A stretch of DNA of 64,000 bases, taken from the sequence record NZ_CP019224.1. One strand, written 5' to 3'. The notes beneath the pieces were generated by a model. The model saw only the letters and a list, made by a program, of their open reading frames with translations, was not told the origin of the DNA and did not search any database. Origin of the DNA: a plasmid. The translations under genes and the position numbers were made by a program. This document shows, piece by piece, positions 14,777 through 64,000 of the stretch; the first letter of the stretch is position 1, and the number at the start of each line of letters is the position of its first letter.

Positions 14777-15401
14777 TGCGTGGCTGTGGCCGGGGGGATT
14801 TGCTCGGGTTAATTTTGGTGGGTGAGTGTTGCGGCGTTCGTGGCTGGGGTTGATCGGCTGCTGAGTCGCGGTCATGAGTTGTTCCCGGCCGGGGGGCCGG
14901 GTGGTGGGCAGGTGTTCGCCGCTGGGGGTCGGGTGCCGGTGCCGGAGGCCCCGGATGGCGACAGCGGTTTGACGGGTGGGGCTCGGGCCGCCGGTGGGGC
15001 GTATCAGCAGGCGCAGGCCGGTGCGGATGGTCTTGACGGGGACTCGGGGCAGGCGGTGGCCCAAGGTGGTGAGGTTGGTGCGCAGGGCCGCGCCGGGTCG
15101 GGGTTGATTCGGGATCAGGCCCGCGCGGTGGGTGCTGCGACCGCGGGGATGGGTCGTTCGCCGGCGGGGGCGAAGTTGATTATGGCGGCCATGGATGATC
15201 ATTTGGCCGCGATGCAGCGTCAGTTGGATCAGACCACGGCCGAAAACCGGCTGTTGGCGATGCGGATGCGTCAGCTGGCGGCGGGCTATCGCGGTCTGGG
15301 TGCAGGTGGGATGGGCGGCGGTATGCCCCTGTCCGGGCTGGGCGGCTTGATGTCGGGCGGCGGCGGTGGCGGCGGCCTGAGCGGGTTGAGCGGCTTGGCG
15401 T
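14777..15401. repeat. ~620-bp direct repeat, copy B (near-identical to 13588-14207)
   Basis: See copy A. Identity ends after ...GAGCGGCTTGG, where the C-terminal modules diverge. Confidence 0.8.
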
Positions 15402-15862: not shown

Positions 15863-15879
15863 CGATTTAACGGTGGGTA

Positions 15880-21644: not shown

Positions 21645-21737
21645 ATCTGCGATGGGCCGCGCGTAAGCCCGCGGGCGTCGATACACTTTTGTCATCAGAC
21701 CGGTCAATGTCCGGTCGGCTCTTTACGGGAGGGTTCC

Positions 21738-22034
21738 ATGTTTGTCGAGGCATTACCTGCGGGCATTGATGCATCCGCGTCCGGGTTGGCCGGGATCGGG
21801 GCGGCGGTAGCGGCGGGCAACGCCGCAGGAGCCGCACCCACACTGGGCGTGGTGCCGCCGGCGCCAGAGCCGGCGTCGGTTCTGTTGGCCGCGGCGTTCG
21901 GCACCCATGCCGGCGTGTATCAGGCCACCCAAGCCATCGGGGAGGTCGTCCACCAGATGTTCGTCTCGACCATGGGCATCAGCTCGGCCGACTACGCCGC
22001 CACCGAGGTCCTCAACACCGCTGCGATGGTCTAG
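21738..22034 (+). CDS. PE family protein (ESX-associated PE)
   Basis: 98-aa Ala/Gly-rich helical protein (...GLAGIGAAVAAGNAAGAAPTLGVVPPA...FGTHAGVYQATQAIGEVVHQMFVSTMGISSADYAATE). Its size and position immediately before a PPE gene are typical. A purine-rich stretch (GGGAGGG) lies upstream of the ATG. Confidence 0.75.
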   Translation: MFVEALPAGIDASASGLAGIGAAVAAGNAAGAAPTLGVVPPAPEPASVLLAAAFGTHAGVYQATQAIGEVVHQMFVSTMGISSADYAATEVLNTAAMV

Positions 22035-48745: not shown

Positions 48746-48966
48746 CTCACGGAAGTTTCCGTGGCTGGGCGGCCTCGCCGCGGCCATCACCGTAGCGGTG
48801 CTGCTGATCGCGGTGGCCATCCACGGCACGCTGCAGGTGATCGACGACGTTGCCAACCAGGTCACAGACGCAAGTTACCAGCCCTAACGTTGCCCTCATC
48901 GCCGCGGCCAACTTCGCAATGGCCAGGGCGACAACAATAATCACGACCAAAGATCGGGAATCACCA

Positions 48967-49533
48967 ATGGCTGATACGCCGCACTTCCTCGACTCCATTG
49001 ACGTCGACCCAGCAGACCCAAACAGCAACGATCCCTGGGGGACGGACCCGGAACCGCGCTACGCACGCTTCGAGGCCGACGACGCTGCGGTACGCAAGGA
49101 CGCAGCGATAGATTTCGCCCTCGACGAGGCGCATAGCAATGCCCGATGGTCGCGCATTTACTCCGACTGCGCGCGTAGTGAAGCCAACCGGGCCACGATC
49201 TACCGTGACACCGCCGAGACCTGGGCCGCCTGCTCGGATATCGATGCCGACAGAGCAAGTGTGAGCGCCGGCAGTGCCTGGTTAGCTGCGGAGACGGCTA
49301 ACCTAAGTGCTGAAATCGCCGGCAGTGCAGCGCGATCGGCCACCGCGGATCGCCGCCTGGCGTTTAGCCTGACCATGTTCGTGCTAGGGCTCATTCTTGG
49401 CGTCATGCTCGCTGTCCTGATCTATCTGTGGGTGATCGCGATTGCCCACGATGCAGCGCCTGGAACGCCAGGGCTACTACCGCACCACGGTGCCACACCG
49501 ACTGCAGACCAGCAGTTCAAGCTCGCATCGTGA
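48967..49533 (+). CDS. hypothetical protein with C-terminal TM helix
   Basis: 188 aa from an internal ATG (MADTPHFLDSIDVDPADPN...). C-terminal hydrophobic helix FSLTMFVLGLILGVMLAVLIYLWVIAI. Confidence 0.4.
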   Translation: MADTPHFLDSIDVDPADPNSNDPWGTDPEPRYARFEADDAAVRKDAAIDFALDEAHSNARWSRIYSDCARSEANRATIYRDTAETWAACSDIDADRASVSAGSAWLAAETANLSAEIAGSAARSATADRRLAFSLTMFVLGLILGVMLAVLIYLWVIAIAHDAAPGTPGLLPHHGATPTADQQFKLAS

Positions 49534-49560
49534 TCTGACAAGCGCGAAAGGCGTTCGCGA

Positions 49561-49887
49561 ATGAACCCATCACCGCTGCCGGCGACACCCACTGAGGCGC
49601 CACCACATCTCTGCCACGCTCGCGGCTGCGACACTGAGATTGAACCGCGGTTATTCATGTGTCCGGCCCATTGGGCTCAAGTACCACCTGTGCTTCGTGA
49701 GTCGATCAAGTCGACCTATCGGCCAGGCCAGGAACTCGACAAACAGCCCAGTGAGCAGTACCTGGCATTCGCGGCCGCCGCGATCGCCGAGGTAGCGCAC
49801 AAAGAAGAACGGCAGCGGCAGCGAGGCCGCCGCGCACCTTCCAAACCGGTGCAGCTGGCCCTGTTCGACGTCGCACCCAGACGATGA
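49561..49887 (+). CDS. small Cys/His-containing protein (possible zinc-binding)
   Basis: 108 aa. CHARGCDTEIEPRLFMCPAHW gives a C-H-C...C-H spacing suggestive of a zinc ribbon. Basic C-terminus. Confidence 0.35.
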   Translation: MNPSPLPATPTEAPPHLCHARGCDTEIEPRLFMCPAHWAQVPPVLRESIKSTYRPGQELDKQPSEQYLAFAAAAIAEVAHKEERQRQRGRRAPSKPVQLALFDVAPRR

Positions 49888-49929
49888 AAATTATTTTTGA
49901 AGATTGCAGCGCAAGGAGATTAGGGCAGG

Positions 49930-50256
49930 ATGCGCGAAGGCGATGGCGACCCGCCACGGTATTTCGTGGCGCTGAGCTCGGGAACCGGGTACCTCACTGA
50001 CCATACCGGTCTTGTCGAGACGCTTCAGCGACAGAGCGAGTTTGATTGGTACGTGGCCGAAGACGTGCCCATGGTCCCCACTATATGGATAAGCGTGGGC
50101 GACAGTGAGTTTCGGCAGCTCCGGATGACACGGAGACACGTCGGCGGCTCCCGAACCTGCATCGAAGAGCAATGGACGCTAATCGACACACGTACCGGGC
50201 AAGTGGTTGAACGGCTCACCACTTCCTACGCCGAACCCGAGCCGGGGTGGGCCTAG
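49930..50256 (+). CDS. hypothetical protein
   Basis: 108-aa ORF, no motifs. Confidence 0.35.
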   Translation: MREGDGDPPRYFVALSSGTGYLTDHTGLVETLQRQSEFDWYVAEDVPMVPTIWISVGDSEFRQLRMTRRHVGGSRTCIEEQWTLIDTRTGQVVERLTTSYAEPEPGWA

Positions 50257-50355
50257 GAGCAGCACCGCTTGGCGATTCTGAACTAGTTGGTGGTTACGAC
50301 ATGTCCTATGCCGCTGAGAGAATGCCGCAAAGATAAGAATCGAACTGGGGTGGCG

Positions 50356-50877
50356 ATGAGCATTGAAGATGACACGTTGGGGCCGGCCGATGTCACGTTC
50401 AGTGACGGTCAAACGGAGCGGTACGCGGCCGTTGAGCTACTCAATGATGGGGTTCTCAAAACCACGCAGCGCGCCGCGTTCGAGCACCCGGAGTTCGGTA
50501 CCGGAATCGGCGAAACACAGGTGCGTTACCACGCGCCACACACGTGGCGCTATGTAGAGCTCGTGGCCATCGAGAACGGCACCTTGTGGGTCAGCGACGC
50601 CGACTGGGAGAGCGAAGAAGCCGCCAAATGGGAACAGCTCGCAGGGTGCGTCTCGGTCGAAAACGCGTACCAGGTGATCGCCGACTATTTGCTAAAGCAC
50701 TACGCCAAGTACTACGGAGCGCACGCCCTGGAGAGTGCCCGGACGACCTTCAACCTTGAGCCCAATGAATCACGGGCGTCAAAAGAGGTCAGGAACGATG
50801 AGGGCGAGCCCCGGCGGCTGGCCTTCCGCTGGGCAAGCACCCCGAGGGCGACGGGGCCTTTTAGCCCTTTTATGTGA
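50356..50877 (+). CDS. hypothetical protein
   Basis: 173 aa from an internal ATG (MSIEDDTLGPADVTFSDGQTERYAAVELL...). Acidic. No motifs. Confidence 0.35.
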   Translation: MSIEDDTLGPADVTFSDGQTERYAAVELLNDGVLKTTQRAAFEHPEFGTGIGETQVRYHAPHTWRYVELVAIENGTLWVSDADWESEEAAKWEQLAGCVSVENAYQVIADYLLKHYAKYYGAHALESARTTFNLEPNESRASKEVRNDEGEPRRLAFRWASTPRATGPFSPFM

Positions 50878-50920
50878 AAGACGGGGGCGCACCAAATTGG
50901 GCTGAGCGTCGCGCACGGCC

Positions 50921-51532
50921 GTGGTGTCTCGGTATGGTTTTCCCATGTCGTTGCTTGCGACGTCGCCGATGATTTCGGATGTCTGGGTGGCTCAACGGCT
51001 GCCTGACTTGCCACCGGCCCGTGAGTTTCTGATGTCAGCCGGGTTCGGCGGGGCTGCGGCCCTGCTGGCAGCCCTCGTGTTGGCCGCCGTCGCACTGTTT
51101 GCGGTCGGGCGGGCCACCAAGCGCTACCAGCAAATTCGTGATGCCGAACGCGACAATGCGACAGTCCAGCAGTGCTGGCAGCGGCTGGTGTGGATAGTGG
51201 AAACCGCCGGTGTAGAACCGGCCGACAACCAACGCGCCACCGTGGGATTGGGGCCAGAATTAGCTCTCGAACTGCTGCGGGGTTTGTTGCGCGACGCTGA
51301 GGATCTGCGCGCCGACACCCTCGCCGAGGCGGTCACGGTCTATCTGAACGAATTCTCGCGGCTCTTGGCCCACCAGGGCAGCGTGCCCTCAGAACCGTCC
51401 GCTACAGCCCCGGCCGACCAGCGGCCACGAGGAAATCAGCCCGCGGCCGAACCGGCACAGACTAATGGCGCACCGCCCGAGACCCCCAGCAAAGTGGCGG
51501 TCGCCAGCGATCGCCGCCGTCAGCGCCGATGA
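50921..51532 (+). CDS. membrane-anchored hypothetical protein
   Basis: 203 aa. A hydrophobic helix (AGFGGAAALLAALVLAAVALFAV) near the N-terminus. A Pro/Ala-rich C-terminus. Confidence 0.4.
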   Translation: MVSRYGFPMSLLATSPMISDVWVAQRLPDLPPAREFLMSAGFGGAAALLAALVLAAVALFAVGRATKRYQQIRDAERDNATVQQCWQRLVWIVETAGVEPADNQRATVGLGPELALELLRGLLRDAEDLRADTLAEAVTVYLNEFSRLLAHQGSVPSEPSATAPADQRPRGNQPAAEPAQTNGAPPETPSKVAVASDRRRQRR

Positions 51533-52896
51533 CACACCTGCGGCAGCACATCGAGGAACTCGACGTCGATCGCTGGGCGCCGATCACCAAACGGGCCGCC
51601 ACCGCCGCGGTCGATGCTGCGCAGCGGCACGGCAAAGCCTCGCCTGCAGAGGTAGCCGCGGCGGCCGCGATGAGTGAATCTGAGCTCATCGAGCACCGCA
51701 ACCGCGAAGGCCCAGCACCGCAACATCTTTCACCGGTGATGCGGCTTGTCGAGGCCGATCATCGTCGCGCGGTAGCCGAGCATCAGACGCGCCAGGCCCA
51801 GCAGCTCCAACGCGACGCGGAAGCGGCCGCACAGATAGCTCGCAGCGAGGCCGCGGAGTCCGCCCGGGCGGCCGCCGAGGCCCGCGAACAGGCGCGCAGA
51901 GCAGACACCGCGGCCGCGAGTAAGGCCGCCCAACACGCCGCCGAACTTCGCAGCGCCCAACAGACTTTGGACGAGCTGCGCGCCGAGCTCGAACAGGTAC
52001 GCGCCGACGCCGCCACCGAGCAGACCACGGCCGCCGAGCAGCTGCGCGCCGCCAATGAGCGGGCCGAAGAACGAGCTGCAGAGCGCCGCGAGGAACGCGC
52101 AGCCGCTCAGCAAGCCCTCGAAGAGGTCCGAGCCGAGCTCGAAAGGGTACGCGCCGACGCCGGCGCCGAAGTAGCAGCCGCCCAGGAGCAGGCGCGTGCC
52201 GCACAGGAACGCGCCGAACAACGCAGCGCCGAGCGGGCCGCCGAGCGCGGTGCAGCGCACCAAGCCCTAGAAGAGTTGCGCGGCGAGCTCGAAGAGGTCC
52301 GCGCTCGCTCGGCGGCCGAGGTCGCGGCCGTGCAGGGCCGCGCCGATGGCGAGGTTGCCACGGTGCGCGCTGCACTGGCACGGGCCCGGGCAGAAGCTGA
52401 CGACGCTGTGACGGCTCTACATGCGGCTCAAGCAGAGGCCGCGCAGGCACGCGCAGAAGCCGAGCAGGCCCGCCTGGCCGGCGCGGGCGCCCCGGATCTG
52501 CTCAGTGTTCCTATTCCCGCCCCGGAAGTGCGGGCGCATACCGGCCCGATCGAAGACGCGCTCTCGGCGGTCGCTGCCCTTGACCAGGTACTGGAAGCCG
52601 GCATGATCAGCGACGGTCAGCCGGTCGACGGTGAGGCTGTCCGCGCCCTGGTGGCGACGGTGCAGCGGCAAGCCGCCGATCTGTCTGAGCAGTTACACGC
52701 CTTGTCGGCCCGGTACAGCGATGGTTGGCAAGCCCACGCCGCGCACACCTACGTGGGCGCGGCTACCCAGGCATACGGCGGCCTGCTGGCCCGAATCGCC
52801 TCGGCGACACAGCGGCTGGGCCAGCAAGATCCGACCGGTGACGCGGTGGCTGAGGTGGTGACGGCGATGCTCGACGCTCATCCTTGGCGGCGTTGA
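51529..52896 (+). CDS. coiled-coil protein with internal tandem repeats
   Basis: 455 aa. The ATGA overlaps the previous stop. The central region consists of about three imperfect ~45-aa repeats (QQALEEVRAELERVRADAGAEVAAAQEQARAAQERAEQRSAER...). Extremely Ala/Glu/Arg-rich. Confidence 0.5.
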   Translation: MTHLRQHIEELDVDRWAPITKRAATAAVDAAQRHGKASPAEVAAAAAMSESELIEHRNREGPAPQHLSPVMRLVEADHRRAVAEHQTRQAQQLQRDAEAAAQIARSEAAESARAAAEAREQARRADTAAASKAAQHAAELRSAQQTLDELRAELEQVRADAATEQTTAAEQLRAANERAEERAAERREERAAAQQALEEVRAELERVRADAGAEVAAAQEQARAAQERAEQRSAERAAERGAAHQALEELRGELEEVRARSAAEVAAVQGRADGEVATVRAALARARAEADDAVTALHAAQAEAAQARAEAEQARLAGAGAPDLLSVPIPAPEVRAHTGPIEDALSAVAALDQVLEAGMISDGQPVDGEAVRALVATVQRQAADLSEQLHALSARYSDGWQAHAAHTYVGAATQAYGGLLARIASATQRLGQQDPTGDAVAEVVTAMLDAHPWRR

Positions 52897-52936
52897 GACC
52901 GACCGGACGCCAGATGGCGAATTTCGCCACCAAAAC

Positions 52937-53230
52937 CTACACGGGTGGGACGGCACGCAGCAGCTGATCTAGATGCGGTGCGGCGACGCTGTGCTGGTAG
53001 GCGCTAAGGCAGTCAGTGAGTTCAGCTTTGAGGTCGGCGGGCAAGGGCACGGCGTGCTGCACTAGCGCGCGCAAGACAGTGGTAATGGCGCGGTAGGAGT
53101 CACCTGCACCGAGCACGGCGTAAAGCTGGGCACTTTCGGCGGCGGAAAGAGACGGGCTGGTGACGTCGACCAGCTTCCACGCCAAATCGGCTTCGGCCCA
53201 GGTGTCCACATGGTTATTGTCGCGGGACAT
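52937..53230 (-). CDS. small hypothetical protein
   Basis: 97-aa ORF, downstream of and on the same strand as the relaxase. No motifs. Confidence 0.3.
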   Translation of the reverse strand: MSRDNNHVDTWAEADLAWKLVDVTSPSLSAAESAQLYAVLGAGDSYRAITTVLRALVQHAVPLPADLKAELTDCLSAYQHSVAAPHLDQLLRAVPPV

Positions 53231-53313
53231 CGATGAAAGCGCTGCCCGACGCGAGACGGTGGTCTGGGCCCGTGCCGGGAAAAATTACACTGCTGCACCC
53301 ACACGGTGGGCGG

Positions 53314-56300
53314 TTAGAGTTCGAGGCCGTTGCCGCGGTCTTGGTCGCGGCCGCGTGCGCGGTCGCGGGCAGCGATGGCATCCAATCGTGCTGTGCTGGT
53401 GGCGATGTCGGCCAGCTGGCCGAGAACCTGGTCGCGTTGGCGCAACAGTTGCTCGGCGCGGCTGCGCTCGGTGCTGGGCGTGTTGGTGGCGGCCACGTGG
53501 TGGGCGGCGCGGTCGATGGCGGTGCGGGTCTGGCGATACTCGGGGTCGGGGACGCCGAGTTGCTGGGCGTGCGGCAGGTCGTTGGCCAAGACGGTGAGCA
53601 GCGTGTGGTCGGGTTGCTGTTCGCCGGGGGTGGCGATGAGCAGGAGTTTGGTGTTGGTGGCGGCGGCGCTGTGGGCGAGCCAGCGCAGCTGATCGGCGGT
53701 GAGGGCATGGTCGTCGTCGACGATGAGCAGGCTGCCCAGCGGTAAGGTGCGGTGCTTGCTGGTGACATCGTCGCGGTAGGCGTCGATGGTGGTGGTCGCG
53801 TCGGCGTAGGTGCGCTCGGCGGACTCGGTGTCGGTCACTGCGATGGCGGGCTTGTTGTGGTGGTGGGCGGTGGCGGCCAGGGCGGCCAGTGCGGCGGTTT
53901 TGTCGGCGCCCGGGTGCACGTGGAGCAGTTGGACGCTGTGGATGTTGGTGGTGATGGCGGTGACTGCGCGACGGTGCTTATCGTCGAGGGCTTCAAGGGC
54001 TGCCGGCGGGGGGCTGTACATCGCGGCGGGGCTGGCCGCGCTGGCGGCGGCAAGGAAGTCGACTTCGGCGTGGAGTTGGTCTAGGTCGGCGCCCAGATCG
54101 TAGGTGTGGGCGGGGGTTTGGGCCAGGGCACGGGCCGCGGCGGCTTCGGCGCGGGCGAGTTGGTCGTCGAGGGCGCGGGCCTGGCGGCGGGCGGCATTGA
54201 GGGTTTCGGTGTCGGCGCGCAGTGCGTAGGCGCGCCGGTCGTGCAGGTGTTGTTCGGTGACGATGCCGGCCGCGCCGCCGACGGTGGCGATGAGTTCGGC
54301 GCGGGCCTCATCGAGGCGGGCGCGGGCGGTGCGCACGGCGGTGTCGACCCGCTCGGTTTGTGCGCTGGCTTGGTTGTGGTGCTGCTGGTAGCGGTCGGCG
54401 GCGTCGTGTTCGCCGCGTTCGGTGGCCGCGGTGATCGCGGCCTCGAGCTGGGTGAGGAGTTGGCGGTGTAGCTCGGCGGTGTCTTCGGCGTGCACCCAGC
54501 GGGTGTGCGCGGCGGCTAGGGCCTGCTGGTAGGGGCGTTGGTCGACGAGCTGTTGGTGCAGTTGGGTGAGCTCGGCGGCGGCTGCGCGTTCGGCGGGCCC
54601 GCCGCCGCCGGTGAGGATGGCGTCGGCGAGCTGTTGTGCGTGCTGGTGGGCGGCGTCACGGTGGGCCCGCAGGCCGGGGATGTCGATGTCGTCGACGCGG
54701 GCGGGTGTGGCGGGCCGGGTGGTGGGCAGGTCGGCGATGTCGAGGCCGGCGAGGTCGTCTTCGACAAAGCCGTAGGGGTAGTCGTAGGGGTCGGGCGGGG
54801 GCTCGTGCAGATCGGCCTCGCTGATGAGGTGCTCGTTGAGGTCGAATTGTTGTTGGCCGGTGGGTGTTTCGGCTTGTTCGGCGGGGTGGGGGACGTCGGA
54901 GTCGATGGTGGCGGCGTGGTGGGCGAGCAGCTCGACGCGGTAGGTGAGCAGGCGGGCGTACTCGTCGGGGCGGATGGTTTGGGTGGCCGAGATGTCGTGG
55001 AGGTGTTCGGCGGCCGCGGCGAGCAGATCGTGCGGGGGCCAATCGGCGGCGGTGACCGCGGCGACCAGCCCGGGCCAGGCGGGATCGGTGATGACGGCCT
55101 CGGCGATGCGGGTACCTAGGAAGTGGTGCAAGTCGGCGGTCCAGGCGGGCCGCAGCTTGGTGTCGGTGCCTTCCAGTGAGGGGGGTGCCAGCGTACCGGC
55201 CAGTCGCCACCACAGGGCCGCGGCGGGCATTTCGGCGGGCAGGGGCCCATGTTGGGCCACGGCGTCGTGCAGCAGGGCGGCGACGTCGGCGCCGGCGCGG
55301 GCGGCGCCGTCAAGGTGGGTGGCCAGCCGCGGCCAGAACGGGTCGTCGGCGATGTGGGGGTCGAGGGTGGCGGTGAGTTGGCGCCAGCGGGTGGTGTCGG
55401 CGCCGGCGCGGGTGAGGGCGTCGTCGAGGCGGGTGTGGATGGCTTGTTGGACGATGGCTGAGCGGGTGGCGTTTTGGTGGGGTCCGGTGATGCGGGTGTC
55501 GGCTGGGTCGACGTTGTGGGCGGCGCGGAAGACGGCGATTTCGGCGAGCAGGTTGCGGTGGTCGTCGAGCAGGGGGCGCGCCCATGCCGGTGCGGTGGCG
55601 GCATCCCAGCCGCGGGCGGTGGTGCGAATGTTTTCGGCGAGTTCGCCGACGAGTTGAGCGCGTTGCTGCAGGCAGGTCGCCCACGTTGGATCGGCGGCCA
55701 GGACGTCGGGGATGGCGGGTAGCCAGCGCAGCGGGCCGAGGTCTGCGGCGGTGTTGCCGATGGGGGCGGGCAGGCGCCAGTCGAGTACGGCGGCGGGGTC
55801 GTGCGCGTCGCCGAGCTGGGTGGCCGCGGCGTCGTGTAGGGCGGCGATGGGGTCGTGTCCTTCGATGGCCAGCAGGGCGAGGTGGCGGCGCAGGACGGGC
55901 CATGCTTGGGCTTCGGTCACCTGGTGGGGAAGCGCGGCGGCGGTGGTGTCGATGCGGGCCATGACGGCAGGGCCGGCGTGGTGTTCGGCGCCGGCGGTCA
56001 GGGCGTCGGTGTACATGTCGGCGACGCGGTGCAGCCGGTTGAAGGGGTCGATGTGGGCGGCGGCGGCGCTGTGGGCCGATAGTTGGGCTCCGTCGCGGGC
56101 CAGGATCGCGGAAAGAATGTCGACGGCGGTGGGGGGGTGGGTGGCTTTGGGCGCCAGGATGCGGTGCGGGTCGGCTTCGGCGGTGGAACCGTAGCAGTGG
56201 TTTTCGGTGCGGCCGCGGGTTAAGGCCACGTAGAGCTGTTGGCGGGTGAGGCGGTCGGAAAGGACGGTGTGGCAGGTGCCTTCGATGTCGCGGCGCCCGG

Positions 56301-59205
56301 CGGTCATACCTTGGGCGGCGTTGATGGTGCTGGCGTAGCCCAAGGTGGTGTGGGTGCCCACATAGCGGGCGGGCAGTCGGACCGGGGTGGCTCGCCCACG
56401 CAACGGAACAACGGTCAGCGAGCCGTCTTCGTGGACGGTGCGGATGATCCAGCGGTGCCCGTTTTTGACCCATTTGCCGCGTTGTGCGGTGCGCAGCCAG
56501 CGGGCGTTTTTGCGGGTGGCGATCCAGTCGCCGGCTGAGGCGGTCAGTCCGTCGGCCAGGGTGACGGTCGTGGCGTCTGCGGGGCTGGTGGGTTGGCTGG
56601 TTGTCTGGGCTAAGCGGTCGAGGCGGGCGCGTTCGTTGAGTTCGGCGACGAGCTCGTTGGTGGGGGCTAACAGGATCGAGTCGCGGCCGGCGGCGATGTC
56701 GGCCGACCAGGCTCGGTAGGCCATGTCGGCGGCGGTGGCATCGGCGCCGACATGGACGCGGTGGTGATCGATGTAGAAGCCGATGCCGGCGGGGTCGCCG
56801 GCGCGGATGGCCAGGCTGGCGGCGGCTTCGGCTTGCCCGGTCTCGGGGTGAGTGAAGCGCACGACGGTGCTCAGAGTGACGGTCTCGTAGCGATCGGCGA
56901 GGTCACGCAGGATGCCGCCGGCGGAGATGGAAGCCAGCTGCTGGTCATCACCGATGAGGCGCACACTGGCCCCGCGTGCCAGGGCGTGGGCGATCACGAT
57001 GTCGAGATCCAACGTGGAGGCCATACCGGCCTCGTCGATGATCAGCAGGGTGTCAGAGTCGATGGCGGTGAACCATTTTCGGGCCGGATCATCGGCGGGT
57101 GCGGGTTCGCCGGCGCGGGTTTCGGTGAGCTGGACGAGTTTGGCGATGGTGTCGGTGGGAGCGTTGAGGTCGGTGTTGAGAACTTCGGCCGCACCGGCGG
57201 TGGGGGCCAGCCCGATCACGTTGCCGCCGGCGTTGCGCCAGGCGCCCGCCAGTGCGGCCATCGCGGTGGTTTTCCCGGTGCCGGCCGGGGCTAGGGCGAG
57301 CTGGACGCGGGCCCCCGAAGACGCCATTTCGCGTACCAGCGCCACCTGGCCGGCGTTGAGCTCGACGTCTTGGTTGGCTTGGTATTCCAGCAGCGCCAAC
57401 CCGATGCTGGTGTCATCGACGGTGCGGCCATCGCGCAGCCCGGCGGCCGCCAAAATCCGCCGCTCCGCCGACAAGATGTCCGCGCTGCTATACACCGTGG
57501 TGTCGTGGCGGGTGTAGACGCTGGAACCGTCGCGGCGGCGCAGGGCGGCGGGCTCGTTTTTCTCCGCGTCAGCATCGGTGGTCAAGGCGACACTGTGCTC
57601 GCTTAAAGCGCTCGCCACGAGCCGGTTGACCAGTTCGGGGCCGCCGGGGTGGTTGGCGTAGCGCAGCTCGCGTTGGGCTTCGGCGCGGACGTGGTTGATC
57701 GTCCAGGTGGCCCGGGATTCTGAGACGGTGGCGATGATGGCGGCGGCGTGCTCGTGGACCCATTTGTCGGTGATCTCGACCCGTTGGGACACCGCCTGAT
57801 TCGTGACGTCGGCGACCATGGCGGTCAGGGCGCGCTGGCTGCCCAACACCTCGACGGCCTGCACCCGCCACACGTGGCGCTGTTCACCCAGCGAGCGCGG
57901 TTCGTGCTTGGCTTGGCGGGTTTCCAAGGTGGCCCGTTGAGACAACGCGAGCATCTCGACGACGGTGGGTTCACGGCCATGGTCGACCTGGAATTGCTTG
58001 GCCAGCTCACCGACACGATGGTCAATGGCCGCGCTTCGCGAGGAGAATTTCTCGATCAAAGCTGTAGCCATGCCGACGATTTCGCGCACCGGGCGTTTGC
58101 CGCGTTTGGCGGGGGTTTCGGCGAAACGCACACCGAGCTTTGCGATGAGCAGCGCTTCGATGCGGGTGTTGTAAAACTCTGATGCGGCGACGGTGGCGTG
58201 GTGCAGTGGGGTGCCGTCTAAGGCCAGCCAGCGCGGCACCCCATCGGGGCCAATGACTTGTACCTTGTTGCTGACCGCGGCGTGGGTGTGCAGGTTGGGA
58301 TCTCCGGCGCGCGAGTCGCGGTGATCGAAGGCCGCCACGATCAATCCGGTGCTGTTGACTTGGGCTACGCCGTGGGCCCCCATGCGCGCAAAGGCTGCTT
58401 GGTCTTCGAGAAATTCCAGGGTTTCGGCCACGGCCTGGCGGTGGCATTCCTCGATCCCTTGGGCGATCGGTGTCGGCGCGATCGCCCACAGCGCCGAGAC
58501 GGATTTGACCGGGGTGAAGGTGAGGTCATAGCCGGCCACCGCGGTGGTGGCCGCGCGGGAATTGCTGGCGATAAACCCCGACAGTTCTCGTTCATCAGCC
58601 GGTGGGCGAGAGTAGGTTTCGGTGAACATTTCACGCGCGAGTGCGGTGCGGATGCGGGCCTTAATGTCGGCGGCGAGGCTGGCGTGCTCCTCGTTGCCCA
58701 CGGTGGTGTTGTAGTCGCGGTAGGCCTGGCGCAGCCGGGTCATGAACTGGTTTTTGGTGTTGTTGGTAGCGAACGGGCGGCCTAGCCGCACGGCGGCGAT
58801 CTTGCCCGCCTGGGCGAGGCCAAATCCGGTGAGATGGTGGGTGATTCGGTCGGCGTTGGGGTGGAGTCCTTCACCGAAAAGGGCTTTCATTTGGTCTTCG
58901 CTGACTTGCGATCCGTGCGGCACCGACCACAGTTGCGCGACCAAGGGGTCTGCGGGGTCGCGGGAGACGGGCTGGCCGAGTGCGGCCAGCCCGCGGCCCA
59001 TCCAGGTGCCCGGAGATTCGCCTTTGGCGCTGTAGTACTCGCCCAGGCTGGGACGGCCCCGGTCGGTGGCATCCGAGGCGGCGACTTGGCGAATCAGATA
59101 CATGTAGCCATCGCCAGCGGTCAACTTGTGTAAGCCCATCACCGCCGCATCACCACCAATCCACCGTGACATGTGCTTGAGTGTTACGCGACGCCCGCGC
59201 GACAC
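53314..59205 (-). CDS. MobF-family conjugative relaxase/helicase (TrwC/TraA-like) with long C-terminal extension
   Basis: 1963 aa. The N-terminal relaxase domain has the histidine triad region DPNLHTHAAVSNKV. A RecD-like helicase P-loop LAPAGTGKTT at about aa 640, with Walker B LLIIDEAGM. A UvrD-C-like region. The C-terminal ~900 aa are Ala/Leu-rich with a second, degenerate P-loop-like pair (HPGADKTAAL; LLIVDDDHAL). Confidence 0.9.
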   Translation of the reverse strand: MSRGRRVTLKHMSRWIGGDAAVMGLHKLTAGDGYMYLIRQVAASDATDRGRPSLGEYYSAKGESPGTWMGRGLAALGQPVSRDPADPLVAQLWSVPHGSQVSEDQMKALFGEGLHPNADRITHHLTGFGLAQAGKIAAVRLGRPFATNNTKNQFMTRLRQAYRDYNTTVGNEEHASLAADIKARIRTALAREMFTETYSRPPADERELSGFIASNSRAATTAVAGYDLTFTPVKSVSALWAIAPTPIAQGIEECHRQAVAETLEFLEDQAAFARMGAHGVAQVNSTGLIVAAFDHRDSRAGDPNLHTHAAVSNKVQVIGPDGVPRWLALDGTPLHHATVAASEFYNTRIEALLIAKLGVRFAETPAKRGKRPVREIVGMATALIEKFSSRSAAIDHRVGELAKQFQVDHGREPTVVEMLALSQRATLETRQAKHEPRSLGEQRHVWRVQAVEVLGSQRALTAMVADVTNQAVSQRVEITDKWVHEHAAAIIATVSESRATWTINHVRAEAQRELRYANHPGGPELVNRLVASALSEHSVALTTDADAEKNEPAALRRRDGSSVYTRHDTTVYSSADILSAERRILAAAGLRDGRTVDDTSIGLALLEYQANQDVELNAGQVALVREMASSGARVQLALAPAGTGKTTAMAALAGAWRNAGGNVIGLAPTAGAAEVLNTDLNAPTDTIAKLVQLTETRAGEPAPADDPARKWFTAIDSDTLLIIDEAGMASTLDLDIVIAHALARGASVRLIGDDQQLASISAGGILRDLADRYETVTLSTVVRFTHPETGQAEAAASLAIRAGDPAGIGFYIDHHRVHVGADATAADMAYRAWSADIAAGRDSILLAPTNELVAELNERARLDRLAQTTSQPTSPADATTVTLADGLTASAGDWIATRKNARWLRTAQRGKWVKNGHRWIIRTVHEDGSLTVVPLRGRATPVRLPARYVGTHTTLGYASTINAAQGMTAGRRDIEGTCHTVLSDRLTRQQLYVALTRGRTENHCYGSTAEADPHRILAPKATHPPTAVDILSAILARDGAQLSAHSAAAAHIDPFNRLHRVADMYTDALTAGAEHHAGPAVMARIDTTAAALPHQVTEAQAWPVLRRHLALLAIEGHDPIAALHDAAATQLGDAHDPAAVLDWRLPAPIGNTAADLGPLRWLPAIPDVLAADPTWATCLQQRAQLVGELAENIRTTARGWDAATAPAWARPLLDDHRNLLAEIAVFRAAHNVDPADTRITGPHQNATRSAIVQQAIHTRLDDALTRAGADTTRWRQLTATLDPHIADDPFWPRLATHLDGAARAGADVAALLHDAVAQHGPLPAEMPAAALWWRLAGTLAPPSLEGTDTKLRPAWTADLHHFLGTRIAEAVITDPAWPGLVAAVTAADWPPHDLLAAAAEHLHDISATQTIRPDEYARLLTYRVELLAHHAATIDSDVPHPAEQAETPTGQQQFDLNEHLISEADLHEPPPDPYDYPYGFVEDDLAGLDIADLPTTRPATPARVDDIDIPGLRAHRDAAHQHAQQLADAILTGGGGPAERAAAAELTQLHQQLVDQRPYQQALAAAHTRWVHAEDTAELHRQLLTQLEAAITAATERGEHDAADRYQQHHNQASAQTERVDTAVRTARARLDEARAELIATVGGAAGIVTEQHLHDRRAYALRADTETLNAARRQARALDDQLARAEAAAARALAQTPAHTYDLGADLDQLHAEVDFLAAASAASPAAMYSPPPAALEALDDKHRRAVTAITTNIHSVQLLHVHPGADKTAALAALAATAHHHNKPAIAVTDTESAERTYADATTTIDAYRDDVTSKHRTLPLGSLLIVDDDHALTADQLRWLAHSAAATNTKLLLIATPGEQQPDHTLLTVLANDLPHAQQLGVPDPEYRQTRTAIDRAAHHVAATNTPSTERSRAEQLLRQRDQVLGQLADIATSTARLDAIAARDRARGRDQDRGNGLEL

Positions 59206-59426
59206 GAATATCGCGTTCGTTAGGCCACCTAACTAGCGTCCGTTACCAAACCGTGACCTGAGTGCAAGAGGTGTGATGTGCTGGAGGCGGGTGAAGTTAG
59301 GGTACCCTAAGTGGCGGTGGGATGGTGTGGCGAGGGGTCGGGTCCGGGCATAGCAGGTGGTGGCGGTGGTGAGATTTTTGGGTTCGGGTGCGGCGTAAGG
59401 GTTTTGCGGGCTTTACGGTGTGAGAC
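59206..59426. promoter_or_regulatory. divergent intergenic region; candidate oriT / promoters for relaxase and HTH gene
   Basis: A 221-bp non-coding gap between divergently oriented genes immediately 5' of the relaxase. MobF oriT sites usually lie here. No nic consensus is confidently recognised by eye. Confidence 0.3.
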
Positions 59427-59906
59427 ATGGGAAACAAGGCGGTGAGCAAGCAAGCCCGGCGCGCGGCGCGGGAAGCGGCAACAGCGGCGCAAGACGAAGT
59501 GATCCGACGCACGAAGGCCAACGTCGAGGACTTAGCGACGTTCTTCGATGCGCGCGACCGCGCCGAAGCGGTCGATGCGTGGCTGGCCGAGCGCCAGCAG
59601 GCGCTGGCGCAGCAGGCCGCACAGCGGCGCGCCAACCAACGGGTCAAGGCAGGCGCGGCGCTGCGCGCGATGCGTGACCGCGGGGAAACGCTACGTGAGA
59701 TCGGCCGCATGGCCGGGCTCAGCGAAAAAGCGGTGCGCGACTTGATTCGTGAAACCGAATCCAGCGAGCAGGCCGCGGAACCGGTAGCGGGCGCGGTTAC
59801 ACCGGCGCCGGCGGTCACACCAGAACGCGTGGGCGGCAAAGGCGATGACGCACAGAGCCCACCAGCGGATGCGTTGACAGCGGAGCCGATACCGGCGCAC
59901 GCGTAG
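59427..59906 (+). CDS. HTH-containing protein (possible relaxosome accessory/regulator)
   Basis: 159 aa. ETLREIGRMAGLSEKAVRDLIRE resembles a sigma-70 region-4/LuxR-type HTH. Transcribed divergently from the relaxase. Confidence 0.45.
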   Translation: MGNKAVSKQARRAAREAATAAQDEVIRRTKANVEDLATFFDARDRAEAVDAWLAERQQALAQQAAQRRANQRVKAGAALRAMRDRGETLREIGRMAGLSEKAVRDLIRETESSEQAAEPVAGAVTPAPAVTPERVGGKGDDAQSPPADALTAEPIPAHA

Positions 59907-59994
59907 CCGGGCCTCGCAAGGTTGTCAGTGCCGGCGGGGATGATGACGGCGACGGGCGGCGCAGGGCCGCAAGGGAACCGAAAGCATCGGGAGT

Positions 59995-60519
59995 ATGGGG
60001 GTTTCGGAACCGCTACGGCTGGTGGTGGATCGGCGCGTGCACGCCGAGGAGTTAGGTCGGTTCGAAAACAACGTCGTTCGGGGCCCGGGCGCCGACGATT
60101 GCGCGATCTGGTGTTCGGCGATCGGCGGGGACGGGTACGGACGGTTTTGGGTGTACCGCGGTGGTGCGCGGATGATGGTGCGGGCCAACCGGTATGCGCT
60201 GGCCGCCTCGCTGGAGGGGAAGGCGTTAGAGCCGTGGGTGCGCGCCCTGCACGGCTGTGACAATCCGGTGTGCGTGCGAGCGAGTCTGCCCGACGAACTC
60301 GGCTTGCTGCATGTCATCGGCGGCTCGCAGCGCGACAACATGCAGATGATGGCGCGGGCGCGCCGCGGCGGGGGCCGGGTGCTGGTGCGCCGGGGCGATC
60401 ACGGAGTCATGGCGCGGCGAGCGCGCGCGGTGGCGCTGCGCGATGCGGTGCGCCACGGATGGGATGCCGAAGCCGTCGAGGCAGCGCTGCTGGGCTCTAC
60501 CGACCCGACACTATGGTGA
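59995..60519 (+). CDS. HNH endonuclease family protein
   Basis: 174 aa. CAIWCSAIGGDGYGR...RANRYALAASL...ALHGCDNPVCV contains the Cys pair, Asn and HxCDNxxC elements of HNH nucleases. Confidence 0.5.
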   Translation: MGVSEPLRLVVDRRVHAEELGRFENNVVRGPGADDCAIWCSAIGGDGYGRFWVYRGGARMMVRANRYALAASLEGKALEPWVRALHGCDNPVCVRASLPDELGLLHVIGGSQRDNMQMMARARRGGGRVLVRRGDHGVMARRARAVALRDAVRHGWDAEAVEAALLGSTDPTLW

Positions 60520-60796
60520 GCGGCCGGGCACCAACGGATTTGGCCGTGGCAGCCGGTGGCGTGGCCGTCGAAACCCAGATCGCGGCCCGAGGCCTAGAAA
60601 GAGCGCCGGGGGGGCGCGGGGATGGGCGCGTAGTCGAAGCGCGGCAGCGAGGCGGCGCGGCGCGGCGAGCCGGCGAGTGCCGGCGAGGATCGCGGACAAG
60701 ACTCGAGGCCCCCCGGGTCGGGCTGAGCACGTCCGGCGGCGGGAATCGTGGCGGCGGTGGCGAACAGGTGGCGACGTGCGGCAAGCAACCGTGATG

Positions 60797-60858
60797 CGGG
60801 AAGAAAAAAGGGGGCCCGGCCAACCCCTCGTGGTGGGAGAGGGCTGGCCGGGCCCGGG
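60797..60858 (-). terminator. intrinsic terminator-like hairpin + T-tract (minus strand)
   Basis: On the minus strand: GGGCCCGGCCAG, then a loop, then TTGGCCGGGCCC, followed by CCCCCTTTTTTCTTCC. Lies immediately 3' of the DUF932-like gene. Confidence 0.55.
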
Positions 60859-60875
60859 TAGACCACCGGGGGCAG

Positions 60876-61923
60876 CTAGAGGGTCTGAAGCATCCGGAAC
60901 GCTTGAGCTTTCAGCGATTGTCCGCTGGCCGCGGTGGTGATGTTGCGCAACGCGCGCGCGGCGCTGGCGTCGGTGGCGGTTTTGGCGCCGCGGACTGGAA
61001 CGACGTGGTCCAGGTATTCGGTGACCGCGTTGTAGGCGGCCCAGCGGGTGCCGGCGATGGGCGCGATGGTCTCAGAGGACGTCCACAGTTTCACGATGCT
61101 GTTGGCGCGTTCACGACGGTGGCGGCGCGTGGCGGTAGTGCCCGCCGAGTCGACCTCGAGCAGCGTGTTGGCGAAGCTGCGCATCTCCTCGGTGTCCATC
61201 GGGGCGGCATAGAGCGCAGCTGCCTCGGCTTCGAATGCCTCGATGTAACGCCAACTGAGCTTGAGGGCGTTGCGGGCCTCGGCGATGGAGGCTCGCGCGC
61301 CGCCGGTGTGGCGGATGGAGAAGCTGGACTTGGCCGACCGGATCGCCGCGCTTTGGGTGTTCGCGCAGACAATGCGGATGGGCGACAGGAGGAAACGGAA
61401 GGCTGCACTGCCATCGTGAGAATTTAAGGCCGCGAGGTAGAAGTCAGTGCGGTCTTTGCTGCCGTCCTTACCGTCGAAGACCATGCTGCTGGGCAGCTTC
61501 ATGGTGACGAAGGTTTCCCGCCCGCCGCGCAGCGCGCCGGCGGTCTCGAAGTGGGCGCCTCCGCTTTGGTCCACGAGGGCGTCGAGCAGGTCGCAGGAGG
61601 CCTCGTTTTGGAGGGGCTCGTACTTGCTGCCAACGACCCCGAGGACGTCGAGGCGACCGTTGATCGGGTTGGTGCGCACGGTCGCATAGAAGTCGGGCAC
61701 CACCAGAGGCGCCGGCGTGGTGACGCCGGTGTCGTCGATGACGGGTTCCTGGGGAACCTGCAGCGGCATTTTGCGGACGTTCCAGCCGGCCATGTGCGCG
61801 GCTTCCAGTGCCTCGCGGGCGGTCATGGTGTGGCCAACGGTTTGACCGAGGCGGTGCCAGTGGTCGCTGCGGGAGTTAGCGAAGGAGACGTGCCCGTTGG
61901 TGGTGTCGAGTTCGTGTGCCATG
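60876..61923 (-). CDS. DUF932-like phage/plasmid-related protein
   Basis: 349 aa from the ATG (MAHELDTTNGHVSFANSRSDHWHRLGQ...). The size and the conserved block LLSPIRIVCANTQ match the DUF932 family common on plasmids near transfer genes. Confidence 0.55.
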
Positions 61924-61954
61924 AGAGATGTTCCTTTCCGGGAAACTGTGTTTT

Positions 61955-62340
61955 GTTCGCGCCGGTCAGCGCTGGGGTGCGGGTAAGCGGGTGAGGGTGG
62001 ACGCTCAACCCCGAAGAGTCCCGGGCCGGGAGCTCGCCGGGTTTTCGGCCCGGGCTCGCCGGCGCGCAGCGCCTTCGGGCGAGCTTCCGTAGGGCCGAAA
62101 ACAGTCACTCGGCACGGCGATGCCCGGCCCGGGCGTGGGTTGAGGGGGCGGGCCCCCGCCCGATTACCATGAGCACCCCGCTGACAGGCAAATGAGGTGA
62201 GGGGCTACGGGTTTGGTGGCCACCGCGAGGTGGCCAGTCCGGTCGCGCGGGGCGCGCCGGCCACCGCGGGGAACCGGAAGAAAAAGGGGGGCCCGGCCAA
62301 CCCCTCACGATCGGAGAGGCGGCCGGGCCCGGGCGCCGGT
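61955..62340 (-). repeat. ~380-bp repeated intergenic element, copy 1 (terminator + structured leader)
   Basis: Aligns along its length, at high identity (no percentage computed), to 63345-63725. Contains a terminator hairpin/T-tract (62275-62333) and a long imperfect hairpin (CGGGTTTTCGGCCCGGGCTCGCC...GGCGAGC...GGGCCGAAAACAG). Confidence 0.7.
62275..62333 (-). terminator. intrinsic terminator-like hairpin + T-tract (minus strand)
   Basis: GGGCCCGGCC...GGCCGGGCCCCCCTTTTTCTTCC on the minus strand, immediately 3' of the 62340..62876 gene. Confidence 0.55.
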
Positions 62341-62876
62341 CAAGTCCATAACAGGCTGGGGACTTTCGTCCAGGTGTGGCCAGGGTGGGTGTCGGTGAGG
62401 TAGATGCGGTCTCGTGTCCAGCGGCCGGGCCTGCCGTATCCGTGGGCGGTCAAGACGGGCAGCATGTTTCGGGGCTGCTCGTAGTCGTCGAGGGGCAGGG
62501 CGCTTTTGTCAAAGTACTCGCGGCGGTCGGCGTTGCACACGTAGATGTGGGCAGCGGGGCGCGAGGACGGCCGGGGGGTGTTGGCTGTGATGCCGGCAGC
62601 GTGGTCGATGAGGCCTTCGAACCGGACGAACTGGTGGGGTTGGATAGCCCAGTACAGATTGGTGTCCTGTCCTGGCTCGGCGGGGGCGTAGTCACCGGCC
62701 CACACCAGCCGCGATCCCCCGTCGAGGGCGAGCAGTGTTTCGACGGCGGCGAGGAAGGGTGTGCCTTCGCGGGTCTGGACGCCCAGGCGTTCACTGATCC
62801 CGTAGTCCGCGGGGTGAACTGCGCGGGTGATGCGGCCGGCCTGGTCGAGAAATGTCGCGATGTAGTACTCGCCCAT
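62340..62876 (-). CDS. hypothetical protein
   Basis: 178 aa from an internal ATG preceded by AGGAGAA (MGEYYIATFLDQAGRITRAVHPADYG...). No motifs. Confidence 0.45.
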   Translation of the reverse strand: MGEYYIATFLDQAGRITRAVHPADYGISERLGVQTREGTPFLAAVETLLALDGGSRLVWAGDYAPAEPGQDTNLYWAIQPHQFVRFEGLIDHAAGITANTPRPSSRPAAHIYVCNADRREYFDKSALPLDDYEQPRNMLPVLTAHGYGRPGRWTRDRIYLTDTHPGHTWTKVPSLLWT

Positions 62877-62972
62877 GGGTGAATTCTCCTTCGTGTGACT
62901 GAGGTTGGTAGGTGAGAGGCGGTGGTGGTTGGACAGGGTGCAAAGTCGGGCCTGCCCAACCACCACCGGTGG

Positions 62973-63317
62973 CTAGTGATAGAGGGCGCCGTGGAGCCGC
63001 TCGGCGGTGAGCAGCTCCCAGCCGCTGGAGGCGCACGCCCAGGCGGTCTCGCCGATGACCACGACGTCGCCGACGCTGAGGCTGCGGTGACCGGCGAGCC
63101 GGTACTTGAGGGCCCATGGCTGGTCGGGCTCATCGATGTTGAGCTGCTCAAAGACGAGTTCCAGACAAGCCTTGATCTGCTCGGTGCTGGGTGGGCACGC
63201 CACGGTCAGCGTGAATCCCGCGGCAGCGGCAAGCTGCGCGGGTGCGAGCTCTCCGAAGCCGTGGAACTGATGGGCGCCTTCGTTGAGGTACACGGTGGTG
63301 ATGAGGTCGTAGGACAT
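62973..63317 (-). CDS. hypothetical protein
   Basis: 114 aa. The ATG is preceded by GGAGAAA. No motifs. Confidence 0.45.
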   Translation of the reverse strand: MSYDLITTVYLNEGAHQFHGFGELAPAQLAAAAGFTLTVACPPSTEQIKACLELVFEQLNIDEPDQPWALKYRLAGHRSLSVGDVVVIGETAWACASSGWELLTAERLHGALYH

Positions 63318-63344
63318 GCGATTTCTCCGTTCTGTGCGGTGCTG

Positions 63345-63725
63345 GGCGCGCCGGTCAGCGCTGGGGGAGTGGGCTAACCGGGTGAGGGTGGGCGTGCAAC
63401 CCCGAAGAGACCGACCCGGTTACTCGCCGGGTTTTCGGCCCGGGCTCGCCCGGCGCGAAGCGCCATCGGGCGAGCTGCCGTAGGGCCGAAAACAGTCACT
63501 CGGCACGGCGATCACCGGGTCGGGCGTGGGTTGCGCGGTCGGGCCCCCGCCCGGTTAGACTGCGACCCTTGCTGACGGCAAACAAGGTGAGGGGCTACGG
63601 ATTTGGTGGCCACCGCTGAGGTGGCCAGTCCGGTCGCGCGGGGCGCGCCGGGACCTCAGCGGGCCGGAAGAAAAAGGGGGGCCCGGCCCACCCCTCACGA
63701 TCGGAGAAGTGGCCGGGCCCGGGAC
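63345..63725 (-). repeat. ~380-bp repeated intergenic element, copy 2
   Basis: See copy 1. Includes a terminator at 63665-63723, 3' of a partial gene that runs off the window end. Confidence 0.7.
63665..63723 (-). terminator. intrinsic terminator-like hairpin + T-tract (minus strand)
   Basis: GGGCCCGGCCAC...GGGCCGGGCCCCCCTTTTTCTTCC on the minus strand. Confidence 0.5.
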
Positions 63726-63734
63726 ATGTTGGGG

Positions 63735-64000
63735 TTATTCGGGGTTGGTGGCGTCGACGATGGCGCTGCGGATCTGTTCGGGGGGCATGCCTGAGCGCAG
63801 TGCGGTCAGCAGCATCAGCGCCAGCCGCGGCGGCGGGGTCTTGGTGGCTTCGGCTTCGTCGAGTGCGGTGCGCGCCGCGATGGCCGCGCGCACGCTGTCC
63901 TCGAGCAGGCAGTAGCAGGCGGCGGCGATCGTGAGCGCTTCGGCGCGGGGCTGGCCGCGCAGGCGCCGGCCGATGTGAGTCCACAGTTGCGCGCCGGCCT
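63735..64000 (-). CDS. partial CDS (3' end only; continues beyond window)
   Basis: The minus-strand frame is open from the window edge to a stop at 63735-63737 (...LALMLLTALRSGMPPEQIRSAIVDATNPE). There is no in-window start, so it is absent from the ORF track. Confidence 0.3.
   Translation of the reverse strand, partial: AGAQLWTHIGRRLRGQPRAEALTIAAACYCLLEDSVRAAIAARTALDEAEATKTPPPRLALMLLTALRSGMPPEQIRSAIVDATNPE

Follow-up and report, generated by a model that had tools for sequence, protein, structure and literature searches.

Why should different, consecutive genes of one plasmid be preceded by the same long, hairpin-forming leader? The question is raised by a module found twice near one end of a 64,000-nucleotide (nt) plasmid stretch from the sequence record NZ_CP019224.1 (hereafter the window; all coordinates are those of the whole stretch). 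The window represents a mycobacterial conjugative plasmid of the same kind as pRAW, pMAH135 and pMyong1 that carries ESX genes and encodes a MobF relaxase; its closest plasmid-collection records were 82-89% identical over parts of the query, and no near-identical record was found. On the basis of sequence comparison, we propose that the module array probably consists of Frpo-like single-stranded DNA (ssDNA) promoters, each fused to a preceding terminator, in the leading region of this plasmid.

An earlier note on this DNA had reported two full-length copies of the module sharing about nine in ten positions. As revealed by blastn, 61958-62333 aligned with 63347-63723 over 382 columns at 86.9% identity (E 4e-125), in agreement with MAFFT and a repeat finder; the two-copy repeat was thus confirmed over its full length, and the estimate of its identity proved slightly generous. 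The third, terminator-only copy noted earlier was likewise recovered at 60796-60858, matching the initial 60-63 nt of the module at 84-87% identity (E 1e-13 to 1e-14, blastn), and corresponds to the terminator that closes the array behind its last gene. Further module copies were absent from positions 1-60700 of the window (blastn).

In the direction of the genes, each module comprises a terminator stem-loop with its T tract, two small GC hairpins, a conserved box and an imperfect hairpin of ~221 nt. A terminator-like GC-rich hairpin with a T tract was scored on the minus strand at all three sites, in keeping with the role in ending the upstream gene that had been suggested for it. These terminators lie at 60800-60858 (after the DUF932 gene, with the T tract at 60800-60809 and the stem-loop at 60810-60858), at 62277-62333 (the 5' part of module A, ending unit B) and at 63667-63723 (ending the next upstream unit, that of the DUF4192 gene). 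The small GC hairpins, at 62217-62236 and 62239-62260 in module A and at 63607-63627 and 63630-63651 in module B, stand between the terminator and the long hairpin and keep their stems across plasmids while their sequences vary. The long hairpins occupy 61965-62185 (hairpin A) and 63354-63576 (hairpin B); the pairing GGGTTTTCGGCCC / GGGCCGAAAAC quoted in the earlier note does exist, and it proved to be just the apical tip of this structure. The module folds exceeded those of dinucleotide shuffles in stability by far (z -5.5 as DNA and -7.0 as RNA), none of 100 shuffles equalling them.

The conserved box between the small hairpins and the long hairpin is a G-rich sequence on the + strand, GGTGAGGGGCTACGG (62196-62210 in module A and 63586-63600 in module B), which is located on the template strand directly 3' of the hairpin base. 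Its conservation is even and not -10-like, and a related motif, GGTGAGGGTGG, occurs within the 5' arm at 61990-62000 and 63381-63391. The G-box might bind a protein, pair with the GCCCCC spacer as an alternative partner or form a G-quadruplex.

Covariation and the folding strand

Covariation was assessed on a set of 45 template-strand sequences of the module family sharing less than 85% identity. For these 45 sequences, RNAalifold gave 31 pairs, of which 21 showed compensatory changes; a MAFFT alignment of 72 sequences with gappy columns gave almost no structure. When the lower stem was included (46 pairs), 88.3% of the cells were paired as compared with 76.6% after shuffling, a value reached in none of 500 shuffles. 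Two-sided changes were found in 31 of the 46 pairs (21.0 +/- 1.8 in the shuffled sets), the covariation score was 0.320 (0.145 when shuffled), and controls with slid partners gave a pairing of 36-48%. The long hairpin was thus supported across the 45 family members, and the pattern of substitutions indicates that it is under selection.

The same pairs disclosed which strand folds. On the template strand, the consensus pairs included 185 G.T and only 12 A.C, and hence the sense strand, or an RNA made from it, would carry 185 mismatches and 12 wobbles. An arm-against-arm alignment that is neutral with respect to the strand gave a G.T:A.C ratio of 487:93 with all copies included and of 233:52 when only the 38 cluster representatives were used, while base composition alone predicts at most ~2:1 (1.8-2.3:1). 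The two experimentally proven Frpo elements of the F plasmid (Frpo1 and Frpo2), analyzed by the same script, showed a G.T excess of the same sign (10-11 versus 3-4). The template-strand fold was the more stable one in all 134 copies, the preference amounting to 13.2 kcal/mol in the hairpins as compared with 7.6 kcal/mol in control segments of the gene block, this difference thus being specific to the hairpins only in part. The asymmetry points to the template strand of the downstream genes, that is, the + strand of the window, as the one that folds.

These results bear directly on the possibility, put forward in the earlier note, that the module specifies a structured RNA such as a riboswitch-like or attenuator leader, a processing site or a small RNA (sRNA). 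In this reading, an upstream promoter would drive a 5' leader of ~290 nt whose long hairpin acts in one of these ways or as a stabiliser. The sense strand does fold stably as RNA (-233.6 kcal/mol, z -7.0), the element always precedes a Shine-Dalgarno (SD) sequence and an ATG, and a uniformly conserved box is located just upstream of the hairpin. However, a selected RNA helix would display the reverse of the 185 A.C against 12 G.U counted on the sense strand, the upstream box is evenly conserved with no -10 pattern, and the sense arm itself is devoid of a -10. The Rfam search of the whole window at gathering thresholds gave no match, and the search of 60500-64000 at E <=10 gave only chance-level matches outside the module. 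An RNA leader moreover leaves unaccounted for the invariant A and T found on the opposite strand, as described in the next section, and we therefore regard it as improbable.

Promoter signature on one arm of the hairpin

In an alignment weighted over 38 sequence clusters, the 3' arm of the hairpin, followed along the template strand from loop to base, has the form GGGTTGAcc-N19-YANNNT. The -35 columns were T (1.00), T (0.95), G (0.99) and A (0.84), followed by c and c, and the -10 columns were Y (T 0.53/C 0.47), A (1.00), N, N, C (0.87) and T (1.00). The A at -11 and the T at -7 were thus invariant across the 38 clusters while the middle bases of the -10 were free, and the 14 distinct -10 hexamers, including TACCAT, TAGACT, TAGGCT, TACGCT, CACACT, CATACT and CAGGCT, all conformed to YANNNT. 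The mycobacterial -10 consensus is TANNNT. By comparison of the sequences, the A(-11)/T(-7) pattern is that of a mycobacterial-type -10.

In hairpin A, whose assignment to the + strand was supported by the folds, the covariation and the strand asymmetry, the -35-like TTGAGG (62140-62145, +) is base-paired to 62003-62008, and the -10-like TACCAT (62165-62170, +) follows 19 nt past it, with its final two bases unpaired in the predicted fold. In hairpin B, identified on the same strand by its fold, the 3' arm carries TTGCGC (63531-63536, +) and TAGACT (63556-63561, +) at the corresponding places. Throughout the predicted folds, the -35 was fully paired and the -10 partly mismatched, T(-7) never being Watson-Crick paired. 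Covariation with the opposite arm was seen both at those positions of the -35 that vary and at the initial base of the -10, with changes from A:T to G:C in 22 and 12 sequences, respectively. From the position of the -10 and the pairing of the arms, we infer that transcription of unit A would start at ~61972-61978 and that of unit B at ~63361-63368, both on the minus strand, and the predicted 5' untranslated region (5'UTR) of unit A (61923-61978, minus strand) contains an SD-like motif.

The sense arm, which is the non-template strand in the duplex, keeps TTGAcc because the two arms (R and L) pair with each other, and 17-19 nt downstream neither an A nor a T is invariant; at the place of the -10, it reads TGACCG, TACCCG, TAGCCC or TCCCCC. 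Between the terminator and the hairpin, the spacer has one evenly conserved box and no -10 pattern. With the -10 confined to one arm, a consensus promoter directed at the genes thus arises only through self-pairing of the template strand. A sigma-70 scan restricted to spacers of 16-18 nt detected no promoter in the modules, and none in the Frpo elements of F either.

A second class of long template-strand hairpin (class B, as opposed to the class A of the window), with no similarity to the window module, was found at the far end of the gene blocks of related plasmids, preceding the operons of ParB-N, of nrdH and, among fast growers, of DUF932. The 3' arm of this hairpin carries TTGCRC-N16-CAnAAT, a pattern to which 16 of the 18 copies from eight plasmids fit, and the sense arm reads CCAAAT. 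The -35 was again paired, A(-11) was unpaired in the single fold inspected by position (pMSPYR101, upstream of ParB), and the template strand was the more stable one in 18 of 18 copies. Representative locations, all outside the window, are 12614-13174 and 14822-15508 in pMyong1 (L001), 466-908 and 2550-3147 in pMSPYR101 (L003), and 13112-13773 and 15454-16176 in a further plasmid (L005). That two unrelated sequences should adopt a common geometry within a common block is, at the level of sequence, hard to explain otherwise than by function.

The signature itself could alternatively mark a conventional duplex promoter on the + strand with antisense activity, producing an sRNA or interfering with the upstream gene, with the hairpin being incidental. 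A TTGAcc-N19-YANNNT promoter could indeed work in duplex DNA, and such activity may accompany that of an ssDNA promoter. An incidental hairpin, however, fits poorly with the covariation of the -35 and the first -10 base with the opposite arm, which shows that the pairing itself is selected, with the promoter-in-arm geometry shared by two unrelated hairpin classes, and with the constant distance from the hairpin base to the ATG described below. In addition, the open reading frame (ORF) downstream on the + strand (62213-62398 and 63603-63794) differs in frame between the copies. A solely antisense duplex promoter is thus unlikely to be the explanation.

Placement of the family and the proposed mechanism

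The module was found by blastn at 168 places on 30 mycobacterial plasmids. In nine fetched MOBF plasmids, nhmmer detected 74 copies (5-13 per plasmid), all of them on the mobF strand and inside a co-directional block of small genes (~10-26 kb) that ends at mobF and encodes ParB-N, nrdH, toprim, DUF3560, DUF4192, DUF932, DUF3846 and many hypothetical proteins. A wider scan of one genome per species, in which a loose pattern was followed by a hidden Markov model filter (nhmmer) that removed 77 of 119 loci as chance matches, yielded at least 136 further copies on 42 contigs of Mycobacterium, Mycolicibacterium, Mycobacteriaceae and unnamed Actinomycetota, co-oriented within each contig; the taxonomic range so obtained is a lower bound. 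As a side observation, six module copies lie at ~1.02-1.03 Mb of a chromosome-sized 4.99 Mb scaffold of Mycobacterium interjectum ATCC 51457T, which could reflect an integrated plasmid block or a scaffolding artefact.

The link of the module to gene starts, on which the earlier note had based its view of a shared cis-regulatory element, held across this family. Of 109 anchored copies, 108 were followed, 19-42 nt (mode 36) past the hairpin base, by the start of an ORF of at least 50 codons, and 101 of the 108 copies having a downstream ORF showed an SD-like motif. The module thus combines a terminator for the upstream gene with a structured element for the downstream gene. Since the terminators bound each unit and isolate it from its neighbours, each unit needs its own promoter.

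All copies reside in a co-directional block that abuts and points at mobF, a layout like that of the F leading region. Leading-region genes take the transferred strand (T strand) as template, and relaxases are usually encoded on the lagging side of the origin of transfer (oriT; PMC11541004), which mobF presumably marks here. From this layout we infer that the T strand led by the relaxase into the recipient would be the + strand of the window, which serves the genes as template, and that it would enter 5' first from an oriT situated between the block and mobF, so that the block would constitute the leading region. The entering strand would fold back on itself, its 3' arm providing the non-template strand TTGAcc-N19-YANNNT and its 5' arm the template. 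The host RNA polymerase with its principal sigma factor may then bind this pseudo-duplex, transcribe from the loop side toward the stem base and continue along the single strand through a 5'UTR of ~50 nt with the SD sequence and one or two cargo genes to the next terminator. Once the complementary strand had been synthesized, the non-template strand would become the R arm, with a -35 and no -10, and sense transcription would end. The outcome would be a burst of establishment-gene expression while the plasmid is still single-stranded.

A more far-reaching version would make the module a strand-state switch, in which one set of -35 and -10 hexamers would give sense mRNA for up to ~12 establishment units from the folded T strand and, facing in the opposite direction in the duplex, antisense transcripts into the upstream unit, silencing the block; we consider this version rather doubtful. 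It would imply one or two new classes of ssDNA promoter read by an actinobacterial SigA-type polymerase and would also delimit the leading region, the transferred strand and a list of candidate establishment or anti-defence genes (DUF932, DUF4192, DUF3560, ParB-N and others) for mycobacterial conjugation dependent on ESX and T4SS, suggestions to be taken just as tentatively.

That the hairpins act only as priming signals of the ssi/sso type, giving primers for complementary-strand synthesis without any role in gene expression, was also considered, given that Frpo was originally described as a promoter for primer RNA (PMC7690428) and that the block encodes a toprim protein with a faint DnaG-like match. 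Nevertheless, 10-17 copies, each placed at a fixed distance before an SD sequence and an ATG and bracketed by terminators, display the anatomy of expression units; priming is more plausible as a side effect than as the only function, and in the latter form it appears scarcely probable.

An even poorer prospect is that of duplex promoter-operator modules kept under a plasmid repressor and briefly de-repressed after transfer, for which p576/Reg576 provides a precedent (PMC6294495). The conserved box GGTGAGGGGCTAC, which has a similar copy in the 5' arm, could serve as an operator, and helix-turn-helix (HTH) regulators are annotated in some blocks. Yet there is no sense-strand -10 to repress, and the long covarying hairpin and the strand asymmetry would be left unexplained, making this model very improbable.

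The weakest candidate is a miniature mobile repeat, resembling miniature inverted-repeat transposable elements or repetitive extragenic palindromes, as the earlier note had alternatively suggested, or a set of attC-like sites of a cassette array: the elements are repeated, form hairpins and lie between small co-oriented genes, their GTTGACC/GGTCAAC cores loosely resemble attC R boxes and tyrosine recombinase genes lie close to the block in two plasmids, but a randomly inserting repeat is ruled out by the fixed placement of the copies (at least 210, in a single orientation per replicon or contig and within one gene block, 108 of 109 at the fixed start-codon distance), terminal inverted repeats or target duplications were not noticed in the alignments, in which no dedicated search for them was made, the recombinases are Xer-like (31-45 bits against an integron-integrase cut-off of 265), and the TTGAC boxes lie mid-stem, whereas attC cores form the stem base, so that this origin is extremely unlikely.

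Several points weigh against the proposal of ssDNA promoters. The strand asymmetry is partly compositional, as G and T are in excess on the template strand throughout the block. For a duplex promoter, a spacer of 19 nt is long, and about half of the copies have C instead of T at -12. The -35 and -10 boxes of Frpo were not located by regular-expression and hexamer-mismatch searches. The cargo genes have no demonstrated anti-defence role. As to the strand that is transferred, the inverted repeats upstream of mobF do not reveal which strand is cut, and GC/AT skew was discarded as a guide to the T strand, since in F that strand is not G-rich.

In the window, unit A carries a single cargo gene for a DUF932 protein of 348 aa (60876-61922, minus strand; Pfam PF06067, E 1e-59), and the other module precedes a pair of genes on the same strand, 62973-63317 (114 aa, phrog_34641) and 62340-62876 (178 aa, phrog_3156), which are the first and second cargo genes of unit B, both without an assigned function. 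The 3' end of the DUF4192 gene, cargo of the next unit, follows at 63735-64000 (minus strand; Pfam PF13830, E 5e-10) and runs off the window. Against Pfam and PHROGs, the cargo proteins matched solely DUF families or families of unknown function. The two + strand ORFs mentioned above, which start with TTG, encode Arg-rich products and lie over the small hairpins and the terminator, were set aside as probably spurious.

The relaxase, a MobF-family protein of 1963 aa, is encoded at 53314-59205 on the minus strand, as taken from the ORF list and the mobF annotation in homologous plasmids. It is separated from the block by a gene pair on the opposite strand, composed of an HTH protein with weak similarity to HTH/sigma-70 region 4 (59427-59906, +) and an HNH-endonuclease-like protein (59995-60519, +). 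The pair is kept in the slow-grower relatives, and the fast-grower plasmids are without it. The region upstream of mobF (59206-59426 in the window, and the homologous regions in L001, L003-L007 and L009) contains inverted repeats that are candidate oriT hairpins, with GTTAGG..CCTAAC in slow growers and GGCACAAGTTTGTGCC in fast growers, the latter being duplicated in pELW1-1. The + strand of the window is G/T-rich at 12000-44000 and 53000-64000 (GC skew +0.17 to +0.23, AT skew -0.09 to -0.23) whatever the orientation of the genes, and no skew was seen at 1-12000 and 44000-53000.

Two further observations concern the gene blocks of related plasmids. In pMSPYR101 (L003), three identical IS110-family copies (10551-11756, 14669-15874 and 20699-21904), all on the opposite strand, occupy short gaps between two genes of one unit within the block, and gaps of 69-125 nt are found at the corresponding sites of a related plasmid (L007), which suggests that a specific sequence is targeted. 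The gene at 16063-17355 of pMyong1 and its homologues, annotated as 'telomere-binding protein' or toprim, gave a faint match to a DnaG-type zinc finger/primase (E 3e-5), a similarity that would fit a leading-region primase.

Significance and relation to known systems

Promoters of the ssDNA type explain the expression of anti-defence and establishment genes within the first minutes after plasmid entry, and they have so far been described mainly in E. coli-type plasmids, with demonstrations confined to enterobacterial IncF and IncI plasmids. No report of them in mycobacteria was found, none of the papers matched by a full-text search for ssDNA promoters in Mycobacterium having them as its subject, and a large survey of leading regions mentions neither mycobacteria nor Actinobacteria. 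The paper on pRAW (PMC4173767) describes no repeats, hairpins, leading region or oriT. If the proposed reading is correct, the mechanism would also operate in Actinomycetota, with a polymerase that obeys a different promoter grammar, and the presence of the -10 on one arm only would offer a sequence-level explanation for being on in ssDNA and off in the duplex. It would also lend indirect sequence support to single-strand transfer of pRAW-type plasmids, which require both type IV and type VII secretion, and would predict both the strand and the end that enter first. The ~15-25 small genes of unknown function per plasmid would then be the first to be expressed in a new mycobacterial host, making them obvious candidates for roles in anti-restriction, anti-CRISPR or SOS control in pathogens, among them M. 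avium, M. intracellulare and M. marinum. A search rule independent of homology would likewise follow, namely a long template-strand hairpin with a consensus -10 on its 3' arm only.

Among the systems available for comparison, the establishment promoters of the Bacillus plasmid p576, controlled by Reg576, resemble the mycobacterial array in that repeated conserved regions precede several establishment genes of a Gram-positive conjugative plasmid that are expressed transiently after transfer (PMC6294495). They are normal duplex promoters with repressor operators and have no long hairpin, whereas the sense duplex of the present module lacks a -10. The single-strand origins (sso) of rolling-circle plasmids are similar in that the host RNA polymerase recognises folded ssDNA in an orientation-dependent manner and the elements are inactive in the duplex (PMC7690428). 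Nevertheless, they occur once per plasmid and yield a short lagging-strand primer, whereas the mycobacterial elements form arrays with an SD sequence, an ATG and a terminator.

The proposed promoters are modelled on Frpo and the ssi elements. Frpo is an element of ~328 nt in the F leading region, the single-stranded form of which adopts a stem-loop that presents -35 and -10 sequences to RNA polymerase; Frpo1 and Frpo2 precede two operons; early expression in transconjugants depends on them, and complementary-strand synthesis turns them off (PMC9849209, PMC7690428). In our hands, the Frpo copies of F were ~89% identical and located before operons. In pESBL, six ssDNA promoters belonging to three sequence classes precede six leading-region operons, and their start sites have been mapped (PMC12672017).

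The module of the window differs from Frpo/ssi in having no sequence similarity to them (best blastn E 0.21; no nhmmer match), and this lack of homology makes it at most a new class and not a member of class 1. It further differs in belonging to another phylum, in its mycobacterial-style -10 (YANNNT) and 19-nt spacer, and in the terminator fused to each copy. The copy numbers are at most 13 class-A elements per stretch and 2-4 class-B elements in other plasmids, as compared with 2-6 ssDNA promoters in F and pESBL.

Other features are alike. The class 1 elements, comprising Frpo1/2 of F and ssi1-3 of ColIb-P9/pESBL, are likewise imperfect hairpins of ~220-330 nt on the template strand, in their case of leading-region genes, present in several copies of 87-92% identity, each before an operon and co-directional with the transfer genes. 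They are said to reconstitute a -35 and a -10 that are off in the duplex (PMC9849209, PMC12672017), to be compared with the sense duplex of the module, which, by its sequence, is without a conserved -10. An excess of G.T on the T strand was also found for F in the present analysis. The class 2 and 3 elements of pESBL and F, located before klcA, ardA and M.EcoGIX, show that hairpins of unrelated sequence can take on one and the same role in a single leading region, a situation mirrored by classes A and B; their start sites were mapped by 5' rapid amplification of cDNA ends in transconjugants, whereas the mycobacterial classes are predictions. Finally, the leading region of F also contains genes of the ParB family and of DUF932 that are co-directional and point at oriT/tra, with the DUF932 gene near oriT, and the ParB/DUF932 arrangement of the mycobacterial blocks relative to mobF is the same as that of F relative to oriT.

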